Source: Shigella phage Sf24. From it: a stretch of DNA of 64,000 bases. The notes beneath the pieces were generated by a model that saw only the letters and a program-made list of their open reading frames with translations, made no database searches and was not told where the DNA came from. The DNA is taken from the sequence record MF327008; one strand, 5' to 3'. Of the stretch, positions 1 to 53,801 are shown piece after piece (position 1 is the stretch's first letter; every line of letters begins with the position of its first letter). The position numbers were made by a program, and so were the translations under genes.

Positions 1-305
1 CAGCGAATTCGCCAAAAACTTGATAAGTCACAACAGCTGAAGTTTCCATAATTTCTTGGACAGCTTTAATAGAATCTTCGTAATTCTTTAAAATAATTTC
101 ATAACCGAAGAAATCTTCAGCAGGAAGAATCGGTCCAGTACGTTTAGCGCAAGTTACTTTATCACGCTCAATAATCAATGAGAAATTTGTGCCGTGAATC
201 TTTTCACGAGCTACCCATTCGCCGCCAGTCAATCCCAAGCTATAAAGTTTTTCAATAAATTTAGAGTTGTAATGATTTTCAAGACTGCTATACTTTTTAA
301 ACATA
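1..305 (-). CDS. rnlB: RNA ligase 2 (Rnl2), 5' portion only; gene continues past window start
   Basis: Minus-strand ATG at 303-305; translation [43 protein letters not shown]... carries the KxHGxN nucleotidyltransferase motif and matches remembered T4 Rnl2 N-terminus. Confidence 0.85.
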
Positions 306-30169: not shown

Positions 30170-31348
30170 TTAAAAGTATTTTTTAAAACTCATCATAACT
30201 TTATCATCAACATCATTATCAATCTGTGCTACAAGGTAAGATGACAGTTCTACTTCTTGCGGCGCGGATTGAACATTATCAGAATTAAGGTATTCACGAA
30301 TCCAAGGATATGGATGTTTAACCGGAGCATCGGTAATTGGGCATGGAAGACCACACTGTTTCATACGAGATACAGTTAAGTAATCAATAAAGCTCCACAT
30401 GCTATTTGTATTTAATCCAGGAACATCGCCATTTTTAAATAAATGAACTGCCCAATCTTTTTCTTGGCGGTTAACTTCCATGAAAATATCAACTGCTTCT
30501 TGTTCACACTCTTTGGCAATTTTAACCCATTCATCGCCGTCAGTGCCAAGTTGAAGTTGACGAATAATATATTGGGTGCCTTTAAGGTGAAGCTGCTCAT
30601 CACGAGCAATGAACTTCATAATCTTGGCATTACCTTCCATGATTTCCATGTTCTTATGGAAGTTAAAGGTACATGCGAAAGATACATAAAAACGAATAGC
30701 TTCTAAGGCATTAATAACGTGCAAACAGAGGTAAAGAGATTTCATTAACTCACGCTTCCAATATGTCTCATGCTCAATAGCATCTTCAATAACGTCTTCG
30801 TCTGCATTAATTTCTTTTTGGTATTCGATATCAGCTTTAGCGTTTTCCCAATAACGAGTTTTAATCAGAACATCATCATAATAACGTCCAATGGATTCAG
30901 CACGTTTCATAATAGCTTCATCTAATACAATTTCATCAAATACCTTCGATGGATCAGTATAAAGATTTCGCATGATATGTGTATATGAACGACTGTGAAT
31001 AGTTTCACTAAAAGTCCATGTAGCAACCCATGTATCAAGACTTGGGTCTGAAATTAACGACATAAGTACAGCAGACGGTGCACGACCCTGAATGCTATCT
31101 AGAAGTGATTGATACTTCAGGTTATTAGTAAAAATATCTTGCTGATATTGAGGAAGCTTATTAAACTGTGCAGCATCCATCATTAAGTTTACTTCTTCGG
31201 GACGCCAGAAAAATGATAATTGCTTTTCGGTCAAATCTTCAAAAACTTTATGACGTTGAATATCATAACGCGCAATACCAAGGCCTGAACCAAAAAACAT
31301 AGGTTCTTTTAAAACATCAACTGGATTTGTATTAAAAACTGTGCTCAT
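30170..31348 (-). CDS. nrdB: ribonucleotide reductase small subunit, uninterrupted
   Basis: 392 aa continuous ORF with ferritin-like fold sequence; no intron. Confidence 0.92.
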   Translation of the reverse strand: MSTVFNTNPVDVLKEPMFFGSGLGIARYDIQRHKVFEDLTEKQLSFFWRPEEVNLMMDAAQFNKLPQYQQDIFTNNLKYQSLLDSIQGRAPSAVLMSLISDPSLDTWVATWTFSETIHSRSYTHIMRNLYTDPSKVFDEIVLDEAIMKRAESIGRYYDDVLIKTRYWENAKADIEYQKEINADEDVIEDAIEHETYWKRELMKSLYLCLHVINALEAIRFYVSFACTFNFHKNMEIMEGNAKIMKFIARDEQLHLKGTQYIIRQLQLGTDGDEWVKIAKECEQEAVDIFMEVNRQEKDWAVHLFKNGDVPGLNTNSMWSFIDYLTVSRMKQCGLPCPITDAPVKHPYPWIREYLNSDNVQSAPQEVELSSYLVAQIDNDVDDKVMMSFKKYF

Positions 31349-41687: not shown

Positions 41688-44600
41688 ATGGCCGAGATTA
41701 AAAGAAAGTTCAGAGCAGAAGACGGTCTGGACGCAGGTGGTGATAAAATAATCAACGTAGCTTTAGCTGATCGTGCCGTAGGAACTGACGGTGTTAACGT
41801 TGATTACTTAATTCAAGAAAACACAGTTCAACAATATGATCCAACTCGTGGATATTTAAAAGATTTTGTAATCATTTATGATAACCGCTTTTGGGCTGCT
41901 ATAAATGATATTCCAAAACCAGCAGGAGCTTTTAATAGCGGACGCTGGAGAGCATTACGTACTGATGCTAACTGGATTACAGTCTCATCTGGTTCATATC
42001 AATTAAAATCTGGTGAAGCTATTTCGGTTAACACTGCAGCTGGTAATGATATTACATTTACTTTACCATCTACTCCAATTGACGGTGATACTATCGTTCT
42101 CCAAGATATTGGAGGAAAACCTGGAGTTAACCAAGTTTTAATTGTAGCTCCAGTACAAAGTATTGTAAACTTTAGAGGTGAACAGGTACGTTCAGTACTA
42201 ATGACTCATCCAAAGTCACAGCTAGTTTTAATTTTTAGTAATCGTCTGTGGCAAATGTATGTTGCTGATTATAGTAGAGAAGCTATAGTTGTAACACCAG
42301 CAAGTCTCTATCAGGCGCAATCTAATGATTTTATCGTACGTAGATTTACTTCTGCTGCACCAATTAATGTTAAACTTCCAAGATTTGCTAATCATGGCGA
42401 TATTATTAATTTCGTTGATTTAGATAAACTGAATCCACTTTATCATACAATTGTTACTACATACGATGAAACGACTTCAGTACAAGAAGTTGGAACTCAT
42501 TCCATTGAAGGCCGTACATCGATTGACGGTTTCTTGATGTTTGATGATAATGAGAAATTGTGGAGATTGTTTGACGGGGATAGTAAAGCACGTTTACGTA
42601 TCATAACGACTAATTCAAATATTCGTCCAAACGAAGAAGTTATGGTATTTGGTGCAAATAACGGAACAACTCAAACGATTGAGCTTCAGCTTCCAACTAA
42701 TATTTCTGTTGGTGATACTGTTAAAATTTCCATGAATTACATGAGAAAAGGACAAACAGTTAAAATCAAAGCTGCAGGTGAAGATAAAATTGCTTCTTCA
42801 GTTCAATTGCTGCAATTCCCAAAACGTTCAGAATATCCGCCTGAAGCTGAGTGGGTTACAGTTCAAGAATTAGTTTTTAACGGTGAAACTAATTATGTTC
42901 CAGTTTTACAGCTTGCTTATATAGAAGATTCTGATGGAAAATACTGGGTTGTACAGCAAAATGTTCCAACCGTAGAAAGAGTAGATTCTTTAAATGATTC
43001 TACTAGAGCAAGATTAGGCGTGATTGCTTTAGCTACACAAGCGCAAGCTAATGTCGATTTAGAAAATTCTCCGCAAAAAGAATTAGCAATTACTCCAGAA
43101 ACATTAGCTAACCGTACTGCTACAGAAACTCGTAGAGGTATCGCAAGAATAGCAACTACTGCTCAAGTGAATCAGAACACCACATTCTCTTTTGCTGATG
43201 ATATTATCATTACTCCTAAAAAGCTGAATGAAAGAACTGCTACAGAAACTCGTAGAGGTGTTGCTGAAATTGCTACGCAACAGGAAACTAATGCAGGTAC
43301 TGATGATACTACAATCATCACTCCTAAAAAGCTTCAAGCTCGACAAGGTTCTGAATCATTATCAGGTATTGTAACCTTTGTATCTACCGCGGGAGCTACT
43401 CCAGCTTCTAGTCGTGAATTAAATGGTACAAACGTTTATAATAAAAACACTAATAATTTAGTTGTTTCGCCTAAAGCTCTAGATCAGTATAAAGCTACTC
43501 CAACGCAGCAAGGTGCAGTAATTTTAGCAGTTGAAAGTGAAGTAATTGCTGGACAGAGCCAAGAAGGATGGGCAAATGCGGTTGTAACGCCAGAAACGTT
43601 ACATAAAAAGACATCAACTGATGGAAGAATTGGATTAATTGAAATTGCTACACAGTCTGAAGTTAATACAGGAACTGATTATACTCGTGCAGTCACTCCT
43701 AAAACTTTAAATGATCGTAAAGCAACTGAAAGTTTAAGTGGTATAGCAGAAATAGCAACACAAGTTGAATTCGACGCAGGCGTCGACGATACTCGTATCT
43801 CTACACCATTAAAAATTAAAACCAGATTTAATAGTACTGATCGTACTTCTGTTGTTGCTCTATCTGGATTAGTTGAATCAGGAACTCTCTGGGACCATTA
43901 TACCCTTAATATTCTTGAAGCAAATGAGACACAGCGTGGTACACTTCGTGTGGCTACACAAGTTGAAGCTGCTGCAGGAACATTAGATAATGTTTTAATA
44001 ACTCCTAAAAAGCTTTTAGGTACTAAATCTACCGAATCGCAGGAAGGTGTTATTAAAGTTGCAACACAAACTGAAACTGTTGCTGGTACATCATCTAATA
44101 CTGCTGTATCTCCAAAGAATTTAAAATGGATCGTGCAGAGCGAACCTACTTGGGCAGCTACAACGGCTATAAGAGGATTTGTTAAAACTTCTTCTGGTTC
44201 TATTACTTTCGTTGGTAATGATACTGTTGGTTCAACACAACCTTTAGAATCATATGAAAAAAATAGCTATGCTATATCTCCATATGAATTAAACAGAGTA
44301 TTAGCTAACTATTTACCATTAAAAGCCAAAGCAGTTGATAGTAATTTACTCGATGGTCTAGATTCACTCCAGTTCATTCGTAGGGACATCGCCCAGACAG
44401 TTAATGGATCACTAACCTTAACGCAACAAACGAATCTGAGTGCCCCTCTTGTATCATCTAGTACTGCTACGTTTGGTGGATCAGTTTCTGCTAATAGTAC
44501 ATTGACTATTTCTAACACAGGAACAGCTACTCGACTGATTTTTGAAAAAGGACCTCAGACTGGAACAAATCCGGCTCAAACGATGACTATCAGAGTTTGG

Positions 44601-45557
44601 GGAAATGAGTTTGGAGGTGGTTCTGATACATCACGTTCAACTGTATTTGAAGTTGGTGATGAAACGTCTAATCACTTCTATTCGCAACGTAATAAAGCTG
44701 GTAATATTGTTTTCAGTATTAATGGTACTGTAATGCCAATAAATGTGAATGCTTCGGGTTCATTGAATGCTAATGGTGTTGCAACATTTGGTAGTTCTGT
44801 TACTGCTAATGGTGAATTCATCAGTAAATCAGCAAATGCTTTTAGAGCAATAAATGGTGATTACGGATTCTTCATTCGTAATGATGGTGGAAACACCTAT
44901 TTCATGTTAACTGCTTCTGGTGATCAAACTGGTGGATTTAATGGATTAAGACCTTTAGCAATAAACAATACATCAGGTCAAGTTACAATCGGTGAAGGAT
45001 TAATTGCAGCAAAAGGTGTTACGATAAATTCTGGTGGTTTGACTGTTAACTCGAGAATTCGTTCTCAAGGTTCTAAAACTGCTGATTTATATACTCGTGC
45101 TCCTACTGCTGATACAGTCGGATTCTGGTCAATTGACATTAATGATTCAGCTACATACAACCAATTCCCTGGTTATTTTAAAATGGTTGAAAAAACTAAT
45201 GAAGTGACTGGGCTTCCATACTTAGAACGTGGTGAAGAAGTTAAATCTCCTGGTACTTTGACTCAGTTTGGTAATACTCTTGATTCACTTTACCAAGATT
45301 GGATTACTTATCCAATAACTCCTGAAGCACGTACAACCCGTTGGACACGTACTTGGCAGAAGAATAAAAATTCATGGTCAAGTTTTGTCCAAGTATTTGA
45401 TGGTGGAAACCCTCCTCAACCTTCTGATATTGGTGCTTTACCTTCTGATAATGCAATAATCGGAAACTTGACAATAAGGGATTTCTTAAGGATTGGTAAC
45501 GTCCGCATTATTCCAGATCCTGTGACTAAATCAGTTAAATTCGAGTGGATTGAATAA
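41688..45557 (+). CDS. 34: long tail fibre proximal subunit gp34
   Basis: 1289 aa, T4 gp34 length; late promoter TATAAATA at 41646-41653; repeated ATETRRG / ATQ.E motifs. Confidence 0.93.
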   Translation: MAEIKRKFRAEDGLDAGGDKIINVALADRAVGTDGVNVDYLIQENTVQQYDPTRGYLKDFVIIYDNRFWAAINDIPKPAGAFNSGRWRALRTDANWITVSSGSYQLKSGEAISVNTAAGNDITFTLPSTPIDGDTIVLQDIGGKPGVNQVLIVAPVQSIVNFRGEQVRSVLMTHPKSQLVLIFSNRLWQMYVADYSREAIVVTPASLYQAQSNDFIVRRFTSAAPINVKLPRFANHGDIINFVDLDKLNPLYHTIVTTYDETTSVQEVGTHSIEGRTSIDGFLMFDDNEKLWRLFDGDSKARLRIITTNSNIRPNEEVMVFGANNGTTQTIELQLPTNISVGDTVKISMNYMRKGQTVKIKAAGEDKIASSVQLLQFPKRSEYPPEAEWVTVQELVFNGETNYVPVLQLAYIEDSDGKYWVVQQNVPTVERVDSLNDSTRARLGVIALATQAQANVDLENSPQKELAITPETLANRTATETRRGIARIATTAQVNQNTTFSFADDIIITPKKLNERTATETRRGVAEIATQQETNAGTDDTTIITPKKLQARQGSESLSGIVTFVSTAGATPASSRELNGTNVYNKNTNNLVVSPKALDQYKATPTQQGAVILAVESEVIAGQSQEGWANAVVTPETLHKKTSTDGRIGLIEIATQSEVNTGTDYTRAVTPKTLNDRKATESLSGIAEIATQVEFDAGVDDTRISTPLKIKTRFNSTDRTSVVALSGLVESGTLWDHYTLNILEANETQRGTLRVATQVEAAAGTLDNVLITPKKLLGTKSTESQEGVIKVATQTETVAGTSSNTAVSPKNLKWIVQSEPTWAATTAIRGFVKTSSGSITFVGNDTVGSTQPLESYEKNSYAISPYELNRVLANYLPLKAKAVDSNLLDGLDSLQFIRRDIAQTVNGSLTLTQQTNLSAPLVSSSTATFGGSVSANSTLTISNTGTATRLIFEKGPQTGTNPAQTMTIRVWGNEFGGGSDTSRSTVFEVGDETSNHFYSQRNKAGNIVFSINGTVMPINVNASGSLNANGVATFGSSVTANGEFISKSANAFRAINGDYGFFIRNDGGNTYFMLTASGDQTGGFNGLRPLAINNTSGQVTIGEGLIAAKGVTINSGGLTVNSRIRSQGSKTADLYTRAPTADTVGFWSIDINDSATYNQFPGYFKMVEKTNEVTGLPYLERGEEVKSPGTLTQFGNTLDSLYQDWITYPITPEARTTRWTRTWQKNKNSWSSFVQVFDGGNPPQPSDIGALPSDNAIIGNLTIRDFLRIGNVRIIPDPVTKSVKFEWIE

Positions 45558-45565
45558 GAGGTATT

Positions 45566-46681
45566 ATGGAAAAATTTATGGCAGAGTTTGGACAAGGATA
45601 TGTCCAAACGCCATTTTTATCGGAAAGCAATTCAGTAAGATATAAAATAAGTATAGCGGGTTCTTGCCCGCTTTCTACTGCAGGGCCTTATGTTAAATTT
45701 CAAGATAATCCTATTGGAAGTCAAACATTTAATGCAGGTCTTCATTTGAGAGTTTTTGATCCTACATCAGGAGCGTTAGTCGATAGTAAATCATACGCAT
45801 TTTCATCATCTAACGATACGACATCATCTGCTTTTATTGATTTTATGAATTCTATTTCATCTAATAGAATAGTTGCTATATTAACAAGTGGAAAAGTTAA
45901 TTTCCCTCCTGAAGTAGTTTCTTGGTTAAGAACAGCAGGAACATCTGCTTTTCCATCTGATGCTATATTATCTAGATTTGATGTTTCATACGCAGCTTTT
46001 TACACTTCAGTAAAACGGGCAATCGCGTTAGAACACGTTAAATTAAGTAATAGAAAAAGCACAGATGATTATCAAACTATACTAGATGTAGTATTTGATA
46101 GCATAGAAGATGTTGGAGCAACAGGTTTTCCAAAAAGAACTTATGAAAGCGTTGAACAATTTATGTCAGCAGTTGGTGGAACAAATAATGAAATAGCGCG
46201 TTTACCTACTTCAGCTGCAATAAGTAAACTTTCTGACTACAATTTAATTCCTGGCGATGTTCTTTATCTTAAAGCACAGTTATACGCTGACGCAGATTTA
46301 TTAGCGTTAGGAACTACTAATATTTCAATTCGTTTTTATAACTCATCAAACGGATATATTTCTTCAACCCAAGCTGAATTTACAGGACAGGCTGGATCTT
46401 GGGAATTAAAAGAGGATTATGTGGTTGTTCCAGAAAATGCAGTTGGATTTACGATATATGCACAGAGAACTGCTCAAGCAGGACAAGGCGGCATGCGAAA
46501 TTTAAGCTTTTCTGAAGTATCAAGAAATGGTGGAATTTCAAAACCCGCCGAGTTTGGTGTTAATGGTATTAGAGTTAATTATGTCTGTGAATCTGCTTCA
46601 CCTCCTGATATAATGGTACTTCCAACACAATCGTCTACAAATACTGGAAAAGTTTTTGGACAAGAATTTAGAGAAGTTTAA
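45566..46681 (+). CDS. 35: long tail fibre hinge protein gp35
   Basis: 371 aa; gene order; terminator downstream. Confidence 0.9.
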   Translation: MEKFMAEFGQGYVQTPFLSESNSVRYKISIAGSCPLSTAGPYVKFQDNPIGSQTFNAGLHLRVFDPTSGALVDSKSYAFSSSNDTTSSAFIDFMNSISSNRIVAILTSGKVNFPPEVVSWLRTAGTSAFPSDAILSRFDVSYAAFYTSVKRAIALEHVKLSNRKSTDDYQTILDVVFDSIEDVGATGFPKRTYESVEQFMSAVGGTNNEIARLPTSAAISKLSDYNLIPGDVLYLKAQLYADADLLALGTTNISIRFYNSSNGYISSTQAEFTGQAGSWELKEDYVVVPENAVGFTIYAQRTAQAGQGGMRNLSFSEVSRNGGISKPAEFGVNGIRVNYVCESASPPDIMVLPTQSSTNTGKVFGQEFREV

Positions 46682-46686
46682 ATTGA

Positions 46687-46711
46687 GGGAGCCTCCGGGC
46701 TCCCTTTTTCT
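46687..46711 (+). terminator. rho-independent terminator after gene 35
   Basis: GGGAGCC-UCC-GGGCUCCC hairpin followed by UUUUUCUUU. Confidence 0.75.
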
Positions 46712-46712
46712 T

Positions 46713-46720
46713 TATAAATA
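46713..46720 (+). promoter_or_regulatory. late promoter TATAAATA for gene 36
   Basis: Exact TATAAATA 24 bp upstream of the gene 36 ATG, just after the gene 35 terminator. Confidence 0.75.
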
Positions 46721-46743
46721 TTACTAAAATAAAGGGGCATACA

Positions 46744-47409
46744 ATGGCTGATTTAAAAGTAGGTTCAACAACTGGAGGCTCTGTCATTTGGCATCAAGGA
46801 AATTTTCCATTGAATCCAGCCGGTGACGATGTACTCTATAAATCATTTAAAATATATACAGAATATAATAAACCACAAGCAGCTGATAACGATTTCGTTT
46901 CTAAAGCTAATGGTGGTACTTACGCTTCAAAGGTAACATTTAACGGTGGCGTGCAAATACCATATGCTATAAACAATACAAACCAAAGCGGTATTTTTCC
47001 TGGTAATGGTGATGCTGCTACTTTTGCTACAGCAAATATTGATATTGTTTCATGGTATGGAATTGGTTTTAAATCATCACAAGGATCTGCAGGTAGAACT
47101 GTAGTAATTAATGCACGTAATGGTGATATTAGCACAAAAGGCGTTGTATCTGCTTCAGGACAAGTAAGAAGCGATATGACTGCTCCAGTTGCAGCAAATG
47201 ATCTCACAAGAAAAGATTATGTTGATGGAGCAATAAATATTGTTACGGATAACGCAAATTCACGTGTATTGCGTAGAGGCGATACTATGACTGGAAATTT
47301 AACAGCTCCAAACTTTTTCTCACAGAATCCAGCGTCTCAACCTTCACATGTTCCACGATTTGATCAAATTGTTATTAAGGATTCTGTTCAAGATTTCGGC
47401 TATTATTAA
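46744..47409 (+). CDS. 36: long tail fibre distal connector gp36
   Basis: 221 aa, T4 gp36 length; late promoter at 46713-46720. Confidence 0.9.
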
Positions 47410-47417
47410 GAGGACTT

Positions 47418-50400
47418 ATGGCTACTTTAAAACAAATACAATTTAAAAGAAGCAAAACTGCAGGTCAACGCCCTGCTGCTTCAGTATTAGCCGAAGGTGA
47501 ATTGGCTATAAACTTAAAAGACCGTACTCTTTTTACTAAAGATGACTCGGGAAATATTATTGATTTAAGCATTTCTGCCGGTGGTAACATTAGTGGAAAT
47601 ATTACTCAAAATGGTGATTATTTACAAAACGGCACGTATAATCTTAATGGAAATCAGTTTGTTTATGCAGGAAAGTATATTGAATTCTTGCCAAAAACTG
47701 CTGGAAATGGTGCTTGGGCAAATCAGCACACAAATAAAGCTCCAATTTTCACCGATTTGAGTTCAACTACTTCAACTTCTGAATATCATCCGCTAATTAA
47801 ACAACGTTATAAAGATGGAACGTTTTCATTAGGGACTTTAGTTTCTGAAGGCTCAATGAAGATACACTATATCGATGAAACTGGCACTTCAAAATATTGG
47901 ACTTTCCGACGTGATGGTGGTTTTGTTGTTGATAGTGGTAGTTTAACTGTTACTGCTGGAAACATATCTGCTTCAGGCAATATTAATTCGGCATCAGGGG
48001 TTGTTTCAGCTCCTCAAATTAATACAAAAACCATTGTTTTAGATACAAAAGCATTTGGACAATATGATTCGCAGTCATTAGTTCAGTATGTTTATCCTGG
48101 CACAGGTGAAACAAACGGTATAAACTATCTTCGTAAAGTTCGCGCAAAATCAGGTGGTACAATTTATCATGAAATAGCTTCAGCTCAAACTGGAAAAAGC
48201 GATGAAATTTCGTGGTGGACTGGAAATACAGCCGTTAATAAACAAATGGGTCTTCGTAATGATGGTGCAATGGTATTACGTCGTTCACTTGCTATTGGCA
48301 CAATTACTACAGATGAAAACGTAAATAACTATGGATCTGCTGGAGCAATGGGAGAAAAATACATTGTTCTTGGAGATGCGTCAACTGGACTAGCTTATAA
48401 AAAGACAGGAGTTTATGACTTAGTTGGTAGTGGTTTATCTGTTGCTTCTATCACTCCCGACAGTTTCCGTAGTACGCGTAAAGCAATTTTTGGACGTTCT
48501 GAAGACCAAGGCGGTACATGGCTTCTTCCTGGTCAAAACGCTGCTCTTCTTTCAGTTCGTACAGATATTGATCAAAATAATAACGGTGATGGTCAAACTC
48601 ATATTGGATATAATAGTAACAGCAAGTTTTATCATTATTTTAGAGGCAGAGGCCGAATGGCTGTTGGAATGGCTGAAGGTCTTATTGTTGAGCCTGGAAT
48701 TTTAGATATTAAAACTGGTTCAAATACTGTTTCTATTAGAGCTGATGGCGGAATTTCATCTACTCAGCGTCTTTCATTGCAGAATGGTATATTTTTATCT
48801 TCTGATGGAAATAACAACGGTATATCGTTTAAAGCTTCTAGCAGTATAGATGGAACTAAAACTCTTAATTGGGATGCTGGTACTCGTGCAGGTCAAAACA
48901 AAAATACAGTAATTTTAAAAGCATGGGGAAATTCATTTAATACAAGTGGTGGAACTGATAGACATACTGTATTTGAAGTTTCTGATTCACAAGGATACTA
49001 CTTTTATGCTCAACGTACTACCCCTGCATCCGGTCAAACAGTAGGTCCTATTAATTTTAAATTTAATGGTACTGTAGAAACCGGTCATATCAATGGATTA
49101 GGTAATATTACTTTATCTGGGGCAGTTATAGCAGATTCTGCTAATATTAAAGGACCGCTAAAAATATCTAATGCTAATACAGCTGATGCTTTTAGAATAT
49201 GGAACGCTGAATATGGAGCCATTTTCCGTCGTTCAGAAACATCATTGCATATTATTCCTACACTTAAAGATGCAGGGGAAAATGGTGGAATAAGTAATCT
49301 TCGCCCATTAAGTATTGATCTTTCAAACGGATTTGTGCAAATGCATCATTCTCTTTCTGTGGGGAATACAGTAAGAACGAATGGATTGTTTGCTGTGGAT
49401 ACTTCAGCTGCTCTTGTTGCAATTAACAGTCACTCTCGTGTTAATGCTAATTTCAGAATGCAATTAGGACAATCATCTTATATTGATGCTGAATGTACTG
49501 ACGCTGTGCGCCCTGCTGGAGCCGGTTCTTTTGCTTCGCAAAATAACGAAAACGTCCGTGCCCCATTCTATATGAATATAGATAGAACTGATACAAGCAC
49601 TTATGTTCCTATTGTGAAACAAAGATACGTGCAAAATAATAGTTGCTATTCTATTGGTACTTTAATTAATGGTGGTAACTTTAGAGTTCATTATCATGAA
49701 GGTGGCGATGGTAGTTCTACAGGCGTAGTTATAAAAGATTTAGGATGGGAATTTAATAAAAACGGTGATTTTTATTCTCCTGGTAAATTAGGCGCTGGAA
49801 ATATTAGAATAGGTACTGATGGTAATATCACGGGTGGTTCTGGTAACTTTGCTAACTTGAATACAACTTTAAACCGTAAAGTTAATTCTGGTTTTATTAC
49901 TTATGGAGCAACTGCAGGTTGGTACAAGTTTGCAACAGTAACAATGCCTCAAGCTACATCAACCGTTTCAATTACAGTCACTGGCGGAAATGGATTTAAT
50001 TCTGGATCATTTAATCAGTGCGCAATTTCTGAAATTGTTCTTCGTACAGGAAACAATAATCCTAAAGGATTAAATGCTGTTCTATATAGAAGAGGACTAA
50101 ATTCATTTAGAGATATTGCTTGGGTTAATACATCTGGTGATACATATGACATTTATGTTAATATGGGAACATATGCTAATCAGTTGATATTTAACTATAG
50201 TTCTGTTGATAATGCCACAGTTCAAATTATTGGCGCATTCAGTTCAGCTCAAAATCCTGTTGATGCATTGCCAGAAACATATGTTAAAGGTCAGGTAGCA
50301 GATGTATTGACTAACTTAGTTGATTCTGGAAAAACGAAGCGTTTTGTTGCTGAATCTGAAATAGCTATTAATAATCAAACTGGATTACGTATTACGAGTA

Positions 50401-51281
50401 ATGGTGATAAATCTGGTTCAAATTCAGTATTATTCAGAAATGATGGATCAGCGTTTTATATTCTTTTAACAGATAAAAACGCAGCAGATGGAAATACGAC
50501 TGCCACAGAAGGAGATTGGAATGGTAAACGTCCTTTCCAAATTAATATGACTTCTGGTGAAGTAACATTCGGAAATAATATTAATATTTATGGAAACGGA
50601 AGCATTACTTGGACAAAAGCCGGAGCAAACCCTAGAAATATGAGAATATTTCATGCAGGTGATGCTTCTCGTGGTAACCGTATTGAAATCGCAGATGATA
50701 CTAATTATATTGCTTACTTTGAAAAAACTCCAGGTGGAGCTAACCGCTTTGTAGTTAATGGTGCTACTGTAGCTGGTGTTAATCAAATGAATTCATTTGG
50801 TATTAACATCAATAACGCGCTTGGTGGAAATAGTATAGCATTTGGTGATAATGACACGGGTATTAAGCAAAACGGCGATGGATTATTAGACATTTATGCG
50901 AATGGTGTGCAAACGTTCCGTTTCCAAAACGGTGATTTGTACTCATATAAAAATATAAATGCCCCAAACGTTTATATTCGTTCTGATATTCGCTTAAAAT
51001 CTAATTTCAAACCTATCGAAAATGCGCTTGATAAAGTTGAAAAACTTACTGGTGTCATTTATGATAAAGCTGAATACATCGGTGGAGAGGCAATTGAAAC
51101 TGAAGCGGGTATTGTGGCTCAAACGTTACAAGACGTTTTACCAGAAGCTGTCCGTGAAACAGAAGACAGCAAGGGTAATAAAATACTCACTGTTTCTTCT
51201 CAAGCCCAGATTGCTCTTCTGGTTGAAGCTGTGAAAACGCTTTCTTCTCGTGTAAAAGAACTTGAATCTAAACTTATGTAA
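47418..51281 (+). CDS. 37: long tail fibre distal subunit gp37 with C-terminal intramolecular-chaperone-like domain
   Basis: 1287 aa; C-terminal ~99 aa from SDIRLKS (nt 50982) resembles the autoproteolytic chaperone domains of tail fibres and spikes. Confidence 0.88.
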
Positions 51282-51282
51282 A

Positions 51283-51310
51283 AGAGGGCTTCGGCCCTCT
51301 AAGGATTTTT
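51283..51310 (+). terminator. hairpin terminator after gene 37
   Basis: AGAGGGC-UUCG-GCCCUCU hairpin; T-tract begins 5 nt later. Confidence 0.5.
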
Positions 51311-51311
51311 A

Positions 51312-52097
51312 ATGGCAATTGTAGGTGTTCCTGGCTGGATTGGTGAATCTGCCGTGAATGAAACAGGACAGCGTTGGATGGATGCTGCAATGAGAGCAGT
51401 CCGTGTTTCAGTTCCCGGTTGGATGAGCTCAATGGCCGGACAATCTAAAGAAGTATATTATAGCATTGGTGCTAGTAATTCTTATAATAAAGATACATTA
51501 ATAAACTGGATAAAAGCACAAGGGTCCACGCCTGTTGTTATTACTATTACAGGAAATATCGTTTCTTCATCAGCGGGTCAACCATGTTTAGATTTTCCTA
51601 GTTCATTAACTAACTCATATGTAACGCTTAATATTAATTCGGGTGTACATGTCTGGGGTCGTGGTGGTAATGGCGGAAATAATTCTGCAGGTGGCGCAGG
51701 TGGTACTGCTATAAACAATGCAATAGGAACCAGATTACGTATTAACAACAATGGGGTTATTGCAGGTGGAGGCGGCGGCGGCGGTGGCGGATACTATTCT
51801 CCTTTTTCACAAATGAAATTAACCTTTGGGGGTGGTGGCGGTCGTCCATTTGGTGCTGCTGGCGGGTCTGCTAATATGGAACAGGGCGCTACTGCTGGTA
51901 CTATTTCTGCACCTGGTAAAGGGTCTGTCAATGGTATCTATAATGGCGGGAATGGCGGTGATGCTGGTGCCGCAGGTGGTAAATGTAATATTCGTGGGCA
52001 AGGATCAGAATATAACGGCGGTGCGGCCGGTAAAGCTGTTACTGGTAATGCTCCAACTTGGACTAAGGTTGGTACAATATATGGTTCAAGAGTATAA
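51312..52097 (+). CDS. 38: T2-type gp38 receptor-binding adhesin (glycine-rich motifs)
   Basis: 261 aa; several Gly-rich blocks (GRGGNGGNNSAGGAGG, GGGGGGGGGY, GGGGGRPFGAAGG) separated by variable segments. Confidence 0.85.
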   Translation: MAIVGVPGWIGESAVNETGQRWMDAAMRAVRVSVPGWMSSMAGQSKEVYYSIGASNSYNKDTLINWIKAQGSTPVVITITGNIVSSSAGQPCLDFPSSLTNSYVTLNINSGVHVWGRGGNGGNNSAGGAGGTAINNAIGTRLRINNNGVIAGGGGGGGGGYYSPFSQMKLTFGGGGGRPFGAAGGSANMEQGATAGTISAPGKGSVNGIYNGGNGGDAGAAGGKCNIRGQGSEYNGGAAGKAVTGNAPTWTKVGTIYGSRV

Positions 52098-52129: not shown

Positions 52130-52786
52130 ATGGCAGCACCTAGAATATCATTTTCGCCCTCTGATATTCTATTTGGTGTTCTAGATCGCTTGTTCAAAGA
52201 TAACGCTACCGGGAAAGTTCTTGCTTCCCGGGTAGCTGTCGTAATTCTTTTATTTATGATGGCGATTGTTTGGTATAGGGGAGATAGTTTCTTTGAGTAC
52301 TATAAGCAATCAAAGTATGAAACATACAGTGAAATTATTGAAAAGGAAAGAAATGCACGCTTTGAATCTGTCGCCCTGGAACAACTCCAGATAGTTCATA
52401 TATCATCTGAGGCAGACTTTAGTGCGGTGTATTCTTTCCGCCCTAAAAACTTAAACTATTTTGTTGATATTATAGCATACGAAGGAAGATTACCTTCAAC
52501 AATAACTGAAAAATCACTTGGAGGATATCCTGTTGATAAAACTATGGATGAATATATAGTTCATTTAAATGGACGTCATTATTATTCTGACTCAAAATTT
52601 GCTTTTTTACCAACTAAAAAGCCTACTCCCGAAATAAACTACATGTACAGTTGTCCATATTTTAATTTGGATAATATCTATGCTGGAACGATAACCATGT
52701 ACTGGTATAGAAATGATCATATAAGTAATGACCGCCTTGAATCAATATGCGCTCAGGCGGCCAGAATATTAGGAAGGGCTAAATAA
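52130..52786 (+). CDS. t: holin T
   Basis: 218 aa; single N-terminal transmembrane segment and large C-terminal domain; matches remembered T4 holin. Confidence 0.92.
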   Translation: MAAPRISFSPSDILFGVLDRLFKDNATGKVLASRVAVVILLFMMAIVWYRGDSFFEYYKQSKYETYSEIIEKERNARFESVALEQLQIVHISSEADFSAVYSFRPKNLNYFVDIIAYEGRLPSTITEKSLGGYPVDKTMDEYIVHLNGRHYYSDSKFAFLPTKKPTPEINYMYSCPYFNLDNIYAGTITMYWYRNDHISNDRLESICAQAARILGRAK

Positions 52787-53582: not shown

Positions 53583-53801
53583 TTATGTTTTGCGACTAAA
53601 TTGTTCATAGTGCTGAATTACCTCTCTCAAACATTTGCATGTGAATGAAAACTTTTTAGCTACACCACATTCAAATATATGTTCTCTTAAATCGCGTGTG
53701 TCAGTATATCCCATCTCAACGATAAAATGCCGTATTAGATTTTTATCTTTATCATTGAGAGAATTAAAATAATCGGATTTTGAATTAATTTCCCTGGCCA
53801 A
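53583..53801 (-). CDS. hypothetical protein, 72 aa
   Basis: ORF. Confidence 0.5.
   Translation of the reverse strand: MAREINSKSDYFNSLNDKDKNLIRHFIVEMGYTDTRDLREHIFECGVAKKFSFTCKCLREVIQHYEQFSRKT

Follow-up and report, generated by a model that had tools for sequence, protein, structure and literature searches.

The arrangement in which a processed gp37 carries a gp38 adhesin is the classic one of phages T2 and T6, and has been in the literature since 1986-87. The passage of PMC3157838 that cites Drexler (1986) describes C-terminal proteolytic processing of T2 and T6 gp37, followed by capping with gp38. In the S16 complex 6F45, gp38 meets the gp37 beta-helix at its base and is docked on the gp37 trimer through three Trp residues (PMC6851490). 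For the self-cleaving relatives of the gp37 C-terminus, it has been reported that the catalytic dyad S587/K592 of MyRF is equivalent to S911/K916 of endoNF, and that MyRF is cleaved at P586|S587, immediately ahead of the Ser (PMC8326128).

We analyzed a 64,000-nt stretch of DNA from Shigella phage Sf24 (MF327008; hereafter, the window). Genes 37 and 38 in this window very probably encode the distal half of a Tequatrovirus long tail fibre and its tip adhesin in the T2/T6 configuration, with Tsx as the predicted receptor. The module is already known: it is an ordinary, well-studied T-even receptor-recognition tip, and its alleles are already in GenBank. The lengths of gp37 and gp38 given in a first-pass annotation, which was made from the letters alone, agreed exactly with the ORF list (Table 1). 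The gene order is 34-35-36-37-38-t, the same as in PinkRuby and SholemSchwarzbard, and ORF coordinates together with Pfam show gene 38 immediately flanked by gene 37 and the holin gene t. Scanning all 64,000 nt for Rfam families and tRNAs gave no matches.

Table 1. Coordinates, in the window, of the features of the gene 37-38 module and its surroundings.
Feature	Position	Strand	Remarks
TATAAATA, T4-type late-promoter consensus	46713..46720	+	upstream of gene 36
gp37 ORF	47418-51281	+	1287 aa; start ATG; Shine-Dalgarno GAGGA
gp37 mature part (predicted), aa 1-1188	47418..50981	+	trimeric distal half-fibre shaft and gp38-carrying tip; predicted 127.1 kDa
gp37 intramolecular chaperone / Peptidase_S74 domain, aa 1189-1287	50982..51281	+	10.8 kDa; PF13884
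GC-rich hairpin, UUCG tetraloop (AGAGGGC-UUCG-GCCCUCU)	51283..51300	+	terminator-like scan; between gp37 stop and gp38 ribosome-binding site
gp38 ORF	51312-52097	+	261 aa; start ATG; Shine-Dalgarno AAGGA
gp38 N-terminal attachment domain, aa 1-46	51312..51449	+	PF21721; Trp9, Trp22, Trp37; predicted docking on trimeric gp37 tip
gp38 central beta-helix segment, aa 47-115	51450..51656	+	holds recombination junction and S86, A88, Q90, S102; alignment to 6F45_D
gp38 specificity region	51657..52016	+	seven-adhesin alignment and Trojet nomenclature (PMC3157838)
gp38 GRM1	51657-51704	+	
gp38 beta-helix rung	51705-51764	+	
gp38 GRM2 (G9)	51765-51791	+	
gp38 HVS2, aa 161-172	51792-51827	+	
gp38 GRM3	51828-51866	+	
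gp38 HVS3, aa 186-211	51867-51944	+	
gp38 GRM4	51945-51980	+	
gp38 HVS4, aa 224-235	51981-52016	+	
gp38 GRM5 and conserved C-terminal strand, aa 236-261, with stop codon	52017..52097	+	
T holin gene t	52130-52786		PF11031, E = 5e-116; directly downstream of gp38

Full-length gp37 was assigned to PHROG 1699, 'long tail fiber protein distal subunit' (E = 0), and was 99.3% identical in amino acids to PinkRuby gp37, with no indels. Its identity to T4 gp37 was 54%, over an alignment restricted to T4 aa 1-849, and it lacks the His-rich receptor-binding needle of T4. Residues 441-657 are homologous to the trimerisation domain of gp34, and the tip (aa 1122-1188) showed 95.5% identity to Bas39, 82% to T2 and 16% to T6. 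At the C-terminus, the first-pass annotation had pointed to a segment of about 99 aa starting with SDIRLKS and had likened it to autoproteolytic intramolecular chaperone domains. We found the motif at aa 1189-1195, with its first base at nt 50982 and 99 residues counted from S1189, and the Peptidase_S74 model (PF13884) began exactly at this Ser, covering aa 1189-1246 (model 1-58/58, E = 1.1e-14, 54.8 bits against a curated Pfam cut-off of 22 bits). A phmmer search of the PDB, performed with full-length gp37 and with its 109-aa C-terminus, recovered only S16 gp37 (6F45_A, E = 1.6e-5) and the MyRF ICA (7DC3, E = 0.001); the endosialidase IMC 3GW6 and T5 pb1 were not recovered, and the link to endoNF is thus based on the shared Pfam family and the account in PMC8326128. 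These matches, with the SDxRxK motif in register, uphold the proposed resemblance. By eye, the last ~35 aa of gp37 had a helical appearance; domains of this family are trimeric and close in a triple alpha-helical coiled coil.

SDIRLK aligned with the motifs A/S-D-L-R-A-K of 7DC3 and SDRRIK of 6F45_A. Its S, D, R and K were observed to be invariant among six T2-type gp37 proteins (T2, T6, Bas39, Bas45 and S16 being those compared with the window), and the last 99 aa were 98% identical to those of T2 gp37. Lys1194 lies five residues past Ser1189, the spacing found in both endoNF and MyRF. From the residue roles described in PMC8326128, and thus by homology, we predict that a Ser1189-Lys1194 dyad would cut gp37 between R1188 and S1189.

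gp38 matched two Pfam families, each with a curated cut-off of 25 bits: GP38 (PF05268; E = 1e-71, 241.3 bits, model 1-218/218) and Gp38_N (PF21721; E = 8e-18, 64.6 bits, model 1-40/40, aa 1-42). Scores so far above the cut-offs, for Peptidase_S74 as well as for the two gp38 families, speak against chance matches. It was assigned to PHROG 2056 (E = 1.7e-104), was homologous over its full length to the solved S16 adhesin 6F45_D (E = 1.6e-48, 45-50% identity) and also matched 9V85, the receptor-binding domain of PP01 gp38 (E = 8e-33). BLASTP against T4 gp38 showed no similarity, returning a spurious 23-aa segment at E = 20. These results agree with the earlier view that gp38 is an adhesin of the T2/T6 type and not a chaperone of the T4 type. 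In addition, the stretch 151-GGGGGGGG-158 of S16, which is PGII helix 3, aligned to aa 152-160 of the window protein. Based on this aligned G-run and on the full-length homology to 6F45_D and 9V85, we infer that gp38 would adopt a polyglycine-II sandwich fold.

Two other readings of these proteins were considered, each concerning what remains in the mature virion. In one, the S74-like domain of gp37 would be an inactive relic that stays uncleaved in the mature fibre. The cleavage is only predicted here, and mutations near the cleavage site lower cleavage efficiency in some homologues (PMC8326128). However, the two catalytic residues are intact, as is the motif around them, and neither varies among divergent gp37 proteins of the T2 type, the domain is nearly that of T2, a type reported to be cleaved before capping, and three copies of a 99-aa domain would presumably occupy the surface at the base of the gp37 beta-helix where gp38 docks in 6F45, so that we regard retention as extremely improbable. 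In the other reading, gp38 would be a T4-type assembly chaperone outside the virion, and gp37 itself would bind the receptor. What speaks for this is confined to annotation strings in public records of the same allele (teqsoen, teqhal, RB18 and T6 MH550421). Against it stand the high-scoring hits of gp38 to adhesin families and to two adhesins of solved structure, a gp37 that is without the T4 needle and whose alignment to T4 gp37 ends at T4 aa 849, and a T4 RefSeq note that calls the gp38 of the T2 subfamily unrelated to that of T4 and the adhesin. The T4-type identity was rejected at BLASTP E = 20, and we give this reading next to no weight.

The first-pass annotation had proposed an alignment of gp38 with known adhesins to map its variable segments, and we ran it on seven adhesins, including that of S16. 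W9, W22 and W37 were invariant in all of them, and the attachment domain (aa 1-46) was 97.8% identical to that of T2 and 65% to that of T6. The poly-glycine blocks noticed earlier were also found, namely G9 (152-160), G5 (173-177) and nine GG pairs, with non-Gly segments between them. Gly makes up 22.5% of gp38, and 36% (45/125) of aa 116-240. The GGN codons account for a local peak in GC content (0.46 vs ~0.36) and in GC skew at 51500-51999. The Gly columns at 116-131, 152-158, 173-185, 213-222 and 236-240 were invariant, whereas the segments 161-172, 186-211 and 224-235 varied with receptor type among the Tsx-, FadL-, OmpA- and OmpC-typed adhesins. This pattern is what would be expected if, as had been suggested, the segments between the Gly blocks are the variable part that probably determines specificity. 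GRM5 and the C-terminal strand were conserved, with GGAAG, A242, V243, P248, W250, V253 and G254 invariant.

We then considered the receptor. Direct comparison revealed 0 differences in HVS2, HVS3, HVS4 and all GRMs between the window gp38 and those of FriedrichMiescher (Bas39) and JK38. The receptor of Bas39 was determined experimentally as Tsx (BASEL supplementary file 5, phage table); a literature search pairing Bas39 with Tsx gave no match, and the typing comes from that file. JK38 was typed as Tsx/Kdo by RB-TnSeq (bioRxiv 10.64898/2026.04.02.716166). Since HVS2-4 are identical to those of two Tsx-typed phages, we predict, by homology, that the primary receptor is the nucleoside channel Tsx, an outer-membrane protein of E. 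coli, and not FadL, the receptor of T2. The specificity half of gp38 was 79% identical to that of T6, the classical Tsx phage, vs 56% to that of T2. The label 'T2-type' given in the first-pass annotation therefore holds for the gp37 C-terminus and the gp38 attachment domain, but not for the Gly-rich specificity half, which is T6-like. Similarity in itself is a weak predictor of the receptor, because a single HVS substitution (Q206L) suffices to switch it from OmpF to OmpW (bioRxiv 10.64898/2026.04.02.716166), PST and T6 are told apart by three residues (PMC3157838), and the adhesin of Bas45, which is OmpA-typed, is 85% identical overall to the window gp38 and has the same N-terminal half. The Tsx call therefore rests on the exact identity of HVS2-4.

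The same observations bear on the possibility that this architecture recognizes a receptor other than Tsx, or Tsx plus others: OmpA, or a dual Tsx/OmpA/LPS specificity like that of PST. Recognition would then be altered by a different gp37 context or by the five residues at which the window gp38 differs from both Bas39 and JK38 (S86, A88, Q90, S102 and A137). It is known, as noted above, that minor alterations of gp38 can switch or widen specificity, and the closeness of the Bas45 adhesin points in the same direction. Regions other than the HVSs, among them the N-terminus of gp38, may aid OmpA recognition by PST, and A137 falls between GRM1 and GRM2, a stretch counted as HVS1 by Trojet et al. 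(PMC3157838). On the other hand, every HVS2-4 residue and every GRM is shared with two independently Tsx-typed phages, engineered swaps have shown that gp38 from HVS2 onward is enough to switch the porin (bioRxiv 10.64898/2026.04.02.716166), and the alignment to 6F45_D places four of these five residues in the body of the beta-helix, a long way from the distal loops. A receptor other than, or additional to, Tsx is thus unlikely, and Tsx remains our prediction.

The module had been described as a mosaic tip on a T4-like backbone, and this was clearly visible: the flanks were 96-100% identical to T4 in nucleotides, and the tip was unalignable to T4. The borders of the module stood, and they are refined by an additional junction inside gp38, at about codon 80 (gene nt ~240, window ~51550). 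We counted 65 nucleotide differences between the window gp38 and that of PinkRuby, every one of them past nt 240, and 17 differences from that of SholemSchwarzbard. By sequence comparison, then, the block of gp35, gp37 and the N-terminal part of gp38 is PinkRuby-like, the remainder of gp38 resembles that of SholemSchwarzbard, and the flanking backbone is shared by all T-evens. It has been reported that function requires the N-terminus of gp38 to be compatible with the gp37 tip (PMC12892980). Because the junction sits at gp38 nt ~240, these two parts were co-inherited here, which is consistent with that need. The locus is a natural case of the modular exchange of Trojet et al., remade by engineering in 2026, in which the tip and the attachment domain travel together and the specificity half is swapped. 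The five residues S86, A88, Q90, S102 and A137 would have been brought in by this recombination and might tune host range outside HVS2-4, for example towards Tsx loop variants or an extra receptor. We consider this very unlikely; if true, the beta-helix body would contribute to specificity.

We also examined expression signals around genes 36-38. We take TATAAATA to be the late-promoter consensus from knowledge of T4. Exact matches occurred at only two sites in the fibre cluster, one before gene 34 (41646) and one upstream of gene 36, and the latter is likely the start of a late transcript of genes 36-37-38. Over the window as a whole, the motif was about as frequent as chance would predict (11 observed vs 9.7 expected), and therefore the assignment rests on position and on knowledge of T4. 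A scan for sigma-70 promoters was uninformative (49 matches vs 43 expected). The hairpin between gp37 and gp38 had a folding energy of -13.4 kcal/mol (z = -2.07), which was equalled by 6/200 shuffles, and it may act as an RNA stabiliser or a partial terminator.

Taken as a whole, the module would work as follows. In the gp37 precursor of 137.9 kDa, S1189-M1287 would serve as an intramolecular chaperone that gathers three chains and drives them to fold into the trimeric beta-helical fibre. After correct folding of the trimer, the Ser1189-Lys1194 dyad would cut at R1188|S1189, and the 10.8-kDa fragment would depart. A single gp38 of 25.8 kDa would then cap the freshly exposed trimeric tip through W9, W22 and W37, a 3:1 stoichiometry predicted by homology. 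The Gly-rich motifs would form the polyglycine-II sandwich, and the HVS2-4 loops would point distally and contact the host receptor.

The module raises no new question, and its value lies mostly in annotation: a receptor call for Tsx, a predicted processing site at R1188|S1189 and a segment map of the adhesin. Possible uses are host-range engineering and the choice of phages for cocktails. In public GenBank records the adhesin is often mislabelled with the T4-type name 'distal long tail fiber assembly catalyst'.

Among the closest known systems is PinkRuby (PP925839), in which the entire 4680-nt module is 98.2% identical in nucleotides. The gp38 of SholemSchwarzbard (PP925840) is 99.6% identical in amino acids, with K169R as the sole difference, whereas its gp37 is a different allele with ~81% nucleotide identity over the 3' part only. 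In FriedrichMiescher (Bas39, MZ501066) and Shigella phage JK38 (MK962755), gp38 is likewise 261 aa long with an identical attachment domain, and differs by the substitutions S86Q, A88T, Q90V, S102A and A137G; nucleotide identity is 93%, the differences being mostly synonymous (47/56 vs Bas39). The gp37 of Bas39 is only 67% identical in amino acids. T6 gp38 (261 aa) aligns without gaps, with HVS2-4 77-83% identical but an N-terminal half only 44.5% identical. T6 gp37 (994 aa) is mostly unalignable, although an S74 domain (IRSDSRLK) forms its C-terminal end as well, with a 42% identical IMC. T2 (FadL/OmpF) is the prototype of gp37 processing and of the gp38 adhesin, and its gp37 (1341 aa) is 62% identical overall. 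Its HVS2, HVS3 and HVS4 are only 0%, 23% and 20% identical, so that a receptor unlike that of T2 is expected. The S16 (gp37)3-gp38 complex (6F45) and PP01 (9V85) have gp38 proteins homologous over the full length at about 50% identity, in which the Trp triad, the GRMs and the G-run align, and there is homology at the C-terminus of gp37, SDxRxK included; both adhesins bind OmpC, and their HVS loops are unlike those of the window in sequence and length. Finally, the endoNF IMC (3GW6) and MyRF ICA (7DC3) belong to the same Pfam family, have the same Ser-Lys spacing and lie C-terminal to a trimeric beta-helical fibre, but they are remote in sequence, and their passengers are a sialidase and a transcription factor, respectively, where here it is a tail fibre.

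Genes 34-35-36-37-38 and the T holin form a canonical T-even long-tail-fibre cluster, in which gp37, the distal long-tail-fibre protein, and gp38, the Gly-rich tip adhesin, occupy exactly the open reading frames that the first-pass annotation had assigned to them. Within this cluster, TATAAATA occurs at two sites only, one ahead of gene 34 (41646) and one ahead of gene 36 (46713), positions that would loosely fit a late transcript covering 36-37-38. The interval separating the gp37 stop codon from the ribosome-binding site of gp38 contains a GC-rich hairpin with a UUCG tetraloop (51283-51300; -13.4 kcal/mol, z -2.07) immediately 3' of the stop, and another GC-rich tetraloop hairpin, with a UCCG loop, was found at 46685-46706, immediately 3' of the gp35 stop codon. 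We also observed that aa 58-126 of gp35 match the Pfam family ILEI (interleukin-like EMT inducer, PF15711; E 1.5e-8, 35.5 bits, cut-off 27), an unexpected family name for the fibre hinge protein.

Features of the fibre cluster and segments of gp38; Gly-rich motifs (GRM) and variable segments (HVS) follow Trojet's nomenclature (PMC3157838), and identities are those of the window's gp38 to its T2 and T6 counterparts
Feature	Window (nt)	Strand	gp38 (aa)	T2 identity	T6 identity	Remarks
gp34	41688-45557					neighbour in fibre cluster
gp35	45566-46681					neighbour of gene 37
gp36						neighbour of gene 37; PF03903
Gene 37	47418-51281	+				1287 aa; ATG start, good ribosome-binding site
Gene 38	51312-52097	+				261 aa; ATG start, good ribosome-binding site
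T holin						directly downstream of gene 38; PF11031, E 5e-116
gp38 N-terminus			1-46	97.8%	65%	
gp38 specificity half			111-261	56%	79%	
GRM1			116-131			
Beta-helix rung			132-151			
GRM2			152-160			
HVS2			161-172	0%	83%	
GRM3			173-185			
HVS3			186-211	23%	77%	
GRM4			212-223			
HVS4			224-235	20%	83%	
GRM5 and conserved C-terminus			236-261			

The gp37 terminus had been likened to autoproteolytic intramolecular chaperones from SDIRLKS onward. This motif occupies gp37 aa 1189-1195 (first base nt 50982), leaving 99 residues to the C-terminus, and the Pfam Peptidase_S74 model ('chaperone of endosialidase') starts at the very same serine (aa 1189-1246, model 1-58/58; 54.8 bits, cut-off 22 bits). 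With S-D-x-R-x-K in register in both cases, the last 109 residues match gp37 in the S16 (gp37)3-gp38 structure (6F45_A, E 1.6e-5) as well as the autoprocessing intramolecular-chaperone domain of MyRF (7DC3, E 0.001). The motif's S, D, R and K are invariant in an alignment of the gp37 C-termini of the window, T2, Bas39 (FriedrichMiescher, MZ501066), Bas45, T6 and S16, even though identity over the domain falls to 42% for T6 and 28% for S16; the 99-aa fragments of T2 and the window share 98% identity. In MyRF, S587 and K592 correspond to the endoNF catalytic dyad S911/K916, and mass spectrometry showed that cleavage takes place directly N-terminal of the serine, between P586 and S587 (PMC8326128). 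By transfer, we predict that gp37 is cut between R1188 and S1189, for which the computed products would be a mature gp37 of 127.1 kDa and a fragment of exactly 99 aa and 10.8 kDa. T4 gp37, in contrast, has no S74 domain and ends in a His-rich needle, and the window's gp37 can be aligned to it through T4 aa 849 only. We also noted that gp37 aa 441-657 are homologous to the gp34 C-terminal trimerisation domain (Pfam Gp34_trimer, E 9e-11; PDB 4UXE, E 2e-14) and share 27% identity with aa 906-1196 of the window's own gp34.

The gp38 protein is of the adhesin type and not the T4 chaperone, as had been proposed: it scores 241 bits against Pfam GP38 and 64.6 bits against Gp38_N, matches PHROG 2056 (E 1.7e-104), a family named 'tail fiber protein; host specificity', and also the solved S16 adhesin over its full length (6F45_D, E 1.6e-48) and the receptor-binding domain of PP01 gp38 (9V85, E 8e-33), whereas BLASTP with the window's gp38 found no similarity to T4 gp38 (E = 20). 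The glycine blocks are also present: aa 152-160 form a G9 run and aa 173-177 a G5 run, and there are nine GG pairs besides. Gly makes up 22.5% of the protein and 36% of aa 116-240, and its GGN codons account for the local peak of GC and GC skew at 51500-51999. The G9 run is aligned with PGII helix 3 of S16 (151-GGGGGGGG-158). W9, W22 and W37 are the counterparts of the three Trp through which the S16 adhesin docks on the trimer of gp37 (PMC6851490), and none of them varies among the seven adhesins aligned. In public records, adhesin-type gp38 (teqsoen MN895436, teqhal MN895435, RB18 MH553563, T6 MH550421, vB_Eco_*) is labelled 'distal long tail fiber assembly catalyst' or 'tail assembly protein', which carries the function of the T4 chaperone over to an unrelated protein. 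The record of Shigella phage Sf25 (MF327009) divides gp38 into two pieces, each labelled 'tail fiber/host adhesion protein', and the match to it falls into two segments, which suggests a frameshift or assembly error in that record.

The window belongs to a Tequatrovirus, whose closest relative over nt 30000-54000 is Sf25 (97.7% identity), with Escherichia phage PinkRuby (PP925839) at 95.4%. We calculated identity in 200-nt windows against T6, Bas39, T2, T4 and PinkRuby, and the profile bore out the idea of a mosaic tip on a T4-like backbone, with conserved flanks and a divergent fibre-tip region. The N-terminal two-thirds of gp34, and all sequence from the holin on, match all five phages at 94-100% identity; the exception is nt 41800-42400, where identity to T6 alone drops to 74-86%. 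Across nucleotides 45600-51400 (gp35, gp36 and gp37), identity to PinkRuby is ~100%, whereas the other four phages reach 58-92% or cannot be aligned. Over the final ~700 nt of gp37, the sequence becomes similar to T2 and Bas39 (88-99%). The first 240 nt of gp38 show no differences from PinkRuby and the remaining 546 nt show 65, while the whole gene differs from that of Escherichia phage SholemSchwarzbard (PP925840) at only 17 nt; this pattern places a recombination junction near codon 80 (window about 51550). With the junction at this position, the attachment domain of gp38 has stayed with the gp37 tip, and the specificity half has had a different history, in agreement with experiments showing that T2 gp37 requires a T2-type gp38 N-terminus (PMC12892980). 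Most nucleotide differences in gp38 are synonymous (54/65 against PinkRuby, 47/56 against Bas39), and therefore the exchanged segments differ very little in the protein they specify. Separately, the C-terminal third of gp34 (~44000-45500) shows 64-92% nt identity to these phages, with one exception of 96% to T2, between gp34 flanks of 94-100%, and is a mosaic patch of its own.

Judged by segment identities, gp38 is chimeric relative to the classical T2 and T6 types. The gp38 proteins of Bas39 and Shigella phage JK38 (MK962755) are identical to one another, and just five positions (S86Q, A88T, Q90V, S102A and A137G) set them apart from that of the window, none of which lies within HVS2-4 or any GRM. 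The primary receptor of Bas39 is Tsx (BASEL supplementary file 5 phage table, PMC8594841), and JK38 was typed Tsx/Kdo by RB-TnSeq (bioRxiv 10.64898/2026.04.02.716166). On the basis of this loop identity, the predicted primary receptor is Tsx. The adhesin of Bas45, which is OmpA-typed, shares 85% overall identity but differs exactly in HVS2-4, in line with Lutz et al. (PMC12032242), in whose work OmpA adhesins of type 1 lie near the Tsx group. A gp38 swap from HVS2 onward suffices to switch porin (bioRxiv 10.64898/2026.04.02.716166), and single HVS substitutions can also switch receptors (PMC3157838; bioRxiv 10.64898/2026.04.02.716166), so that exact loop identity, not overall similarity, carries the argument for Tsx. 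Taken together, these results confirm what the first-pass annotation observed and support its interpretation.

Elsewhere, the whole window (1-64000) contains no Rfam family at gathering score and no tRNAs, and therefore no group I introns. A 392-aa ORF at 30170-31348, adjoining a 754-aa nrdA-sized ORF, appears uninterrupted and, from its size and position, is presumably nrdB. Between arn and arn.2 lies a 72-aa ORF with a TTG start (53583-53801, - strand), a slot that holds a 104-aa gene in T6 but only a 43-aa ORF in Bas39 and PinkRuby; it resembles a small gene that is variable or in decay.

The module type reportedly goes back to Henning's laboratory (1986-89), and everything about it is already known: structures are available (6F45, 9V85), Pfam and PHROG both have families for it, and its receptors have been typed systematically. 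GenBank already holds these specific gp37 and gp38 alleles at at least 99% aa identity, and a gp38 relative is detectable by tblastn in 757 of 50,697 phage records, 27 of them with at least 95% identity. The sole feature specific to the window is that a gp37 of the PinkRuby type is paired with a gp38 specificity half of the SholemSchwarzbard type, which is routine T-even mosaicism.
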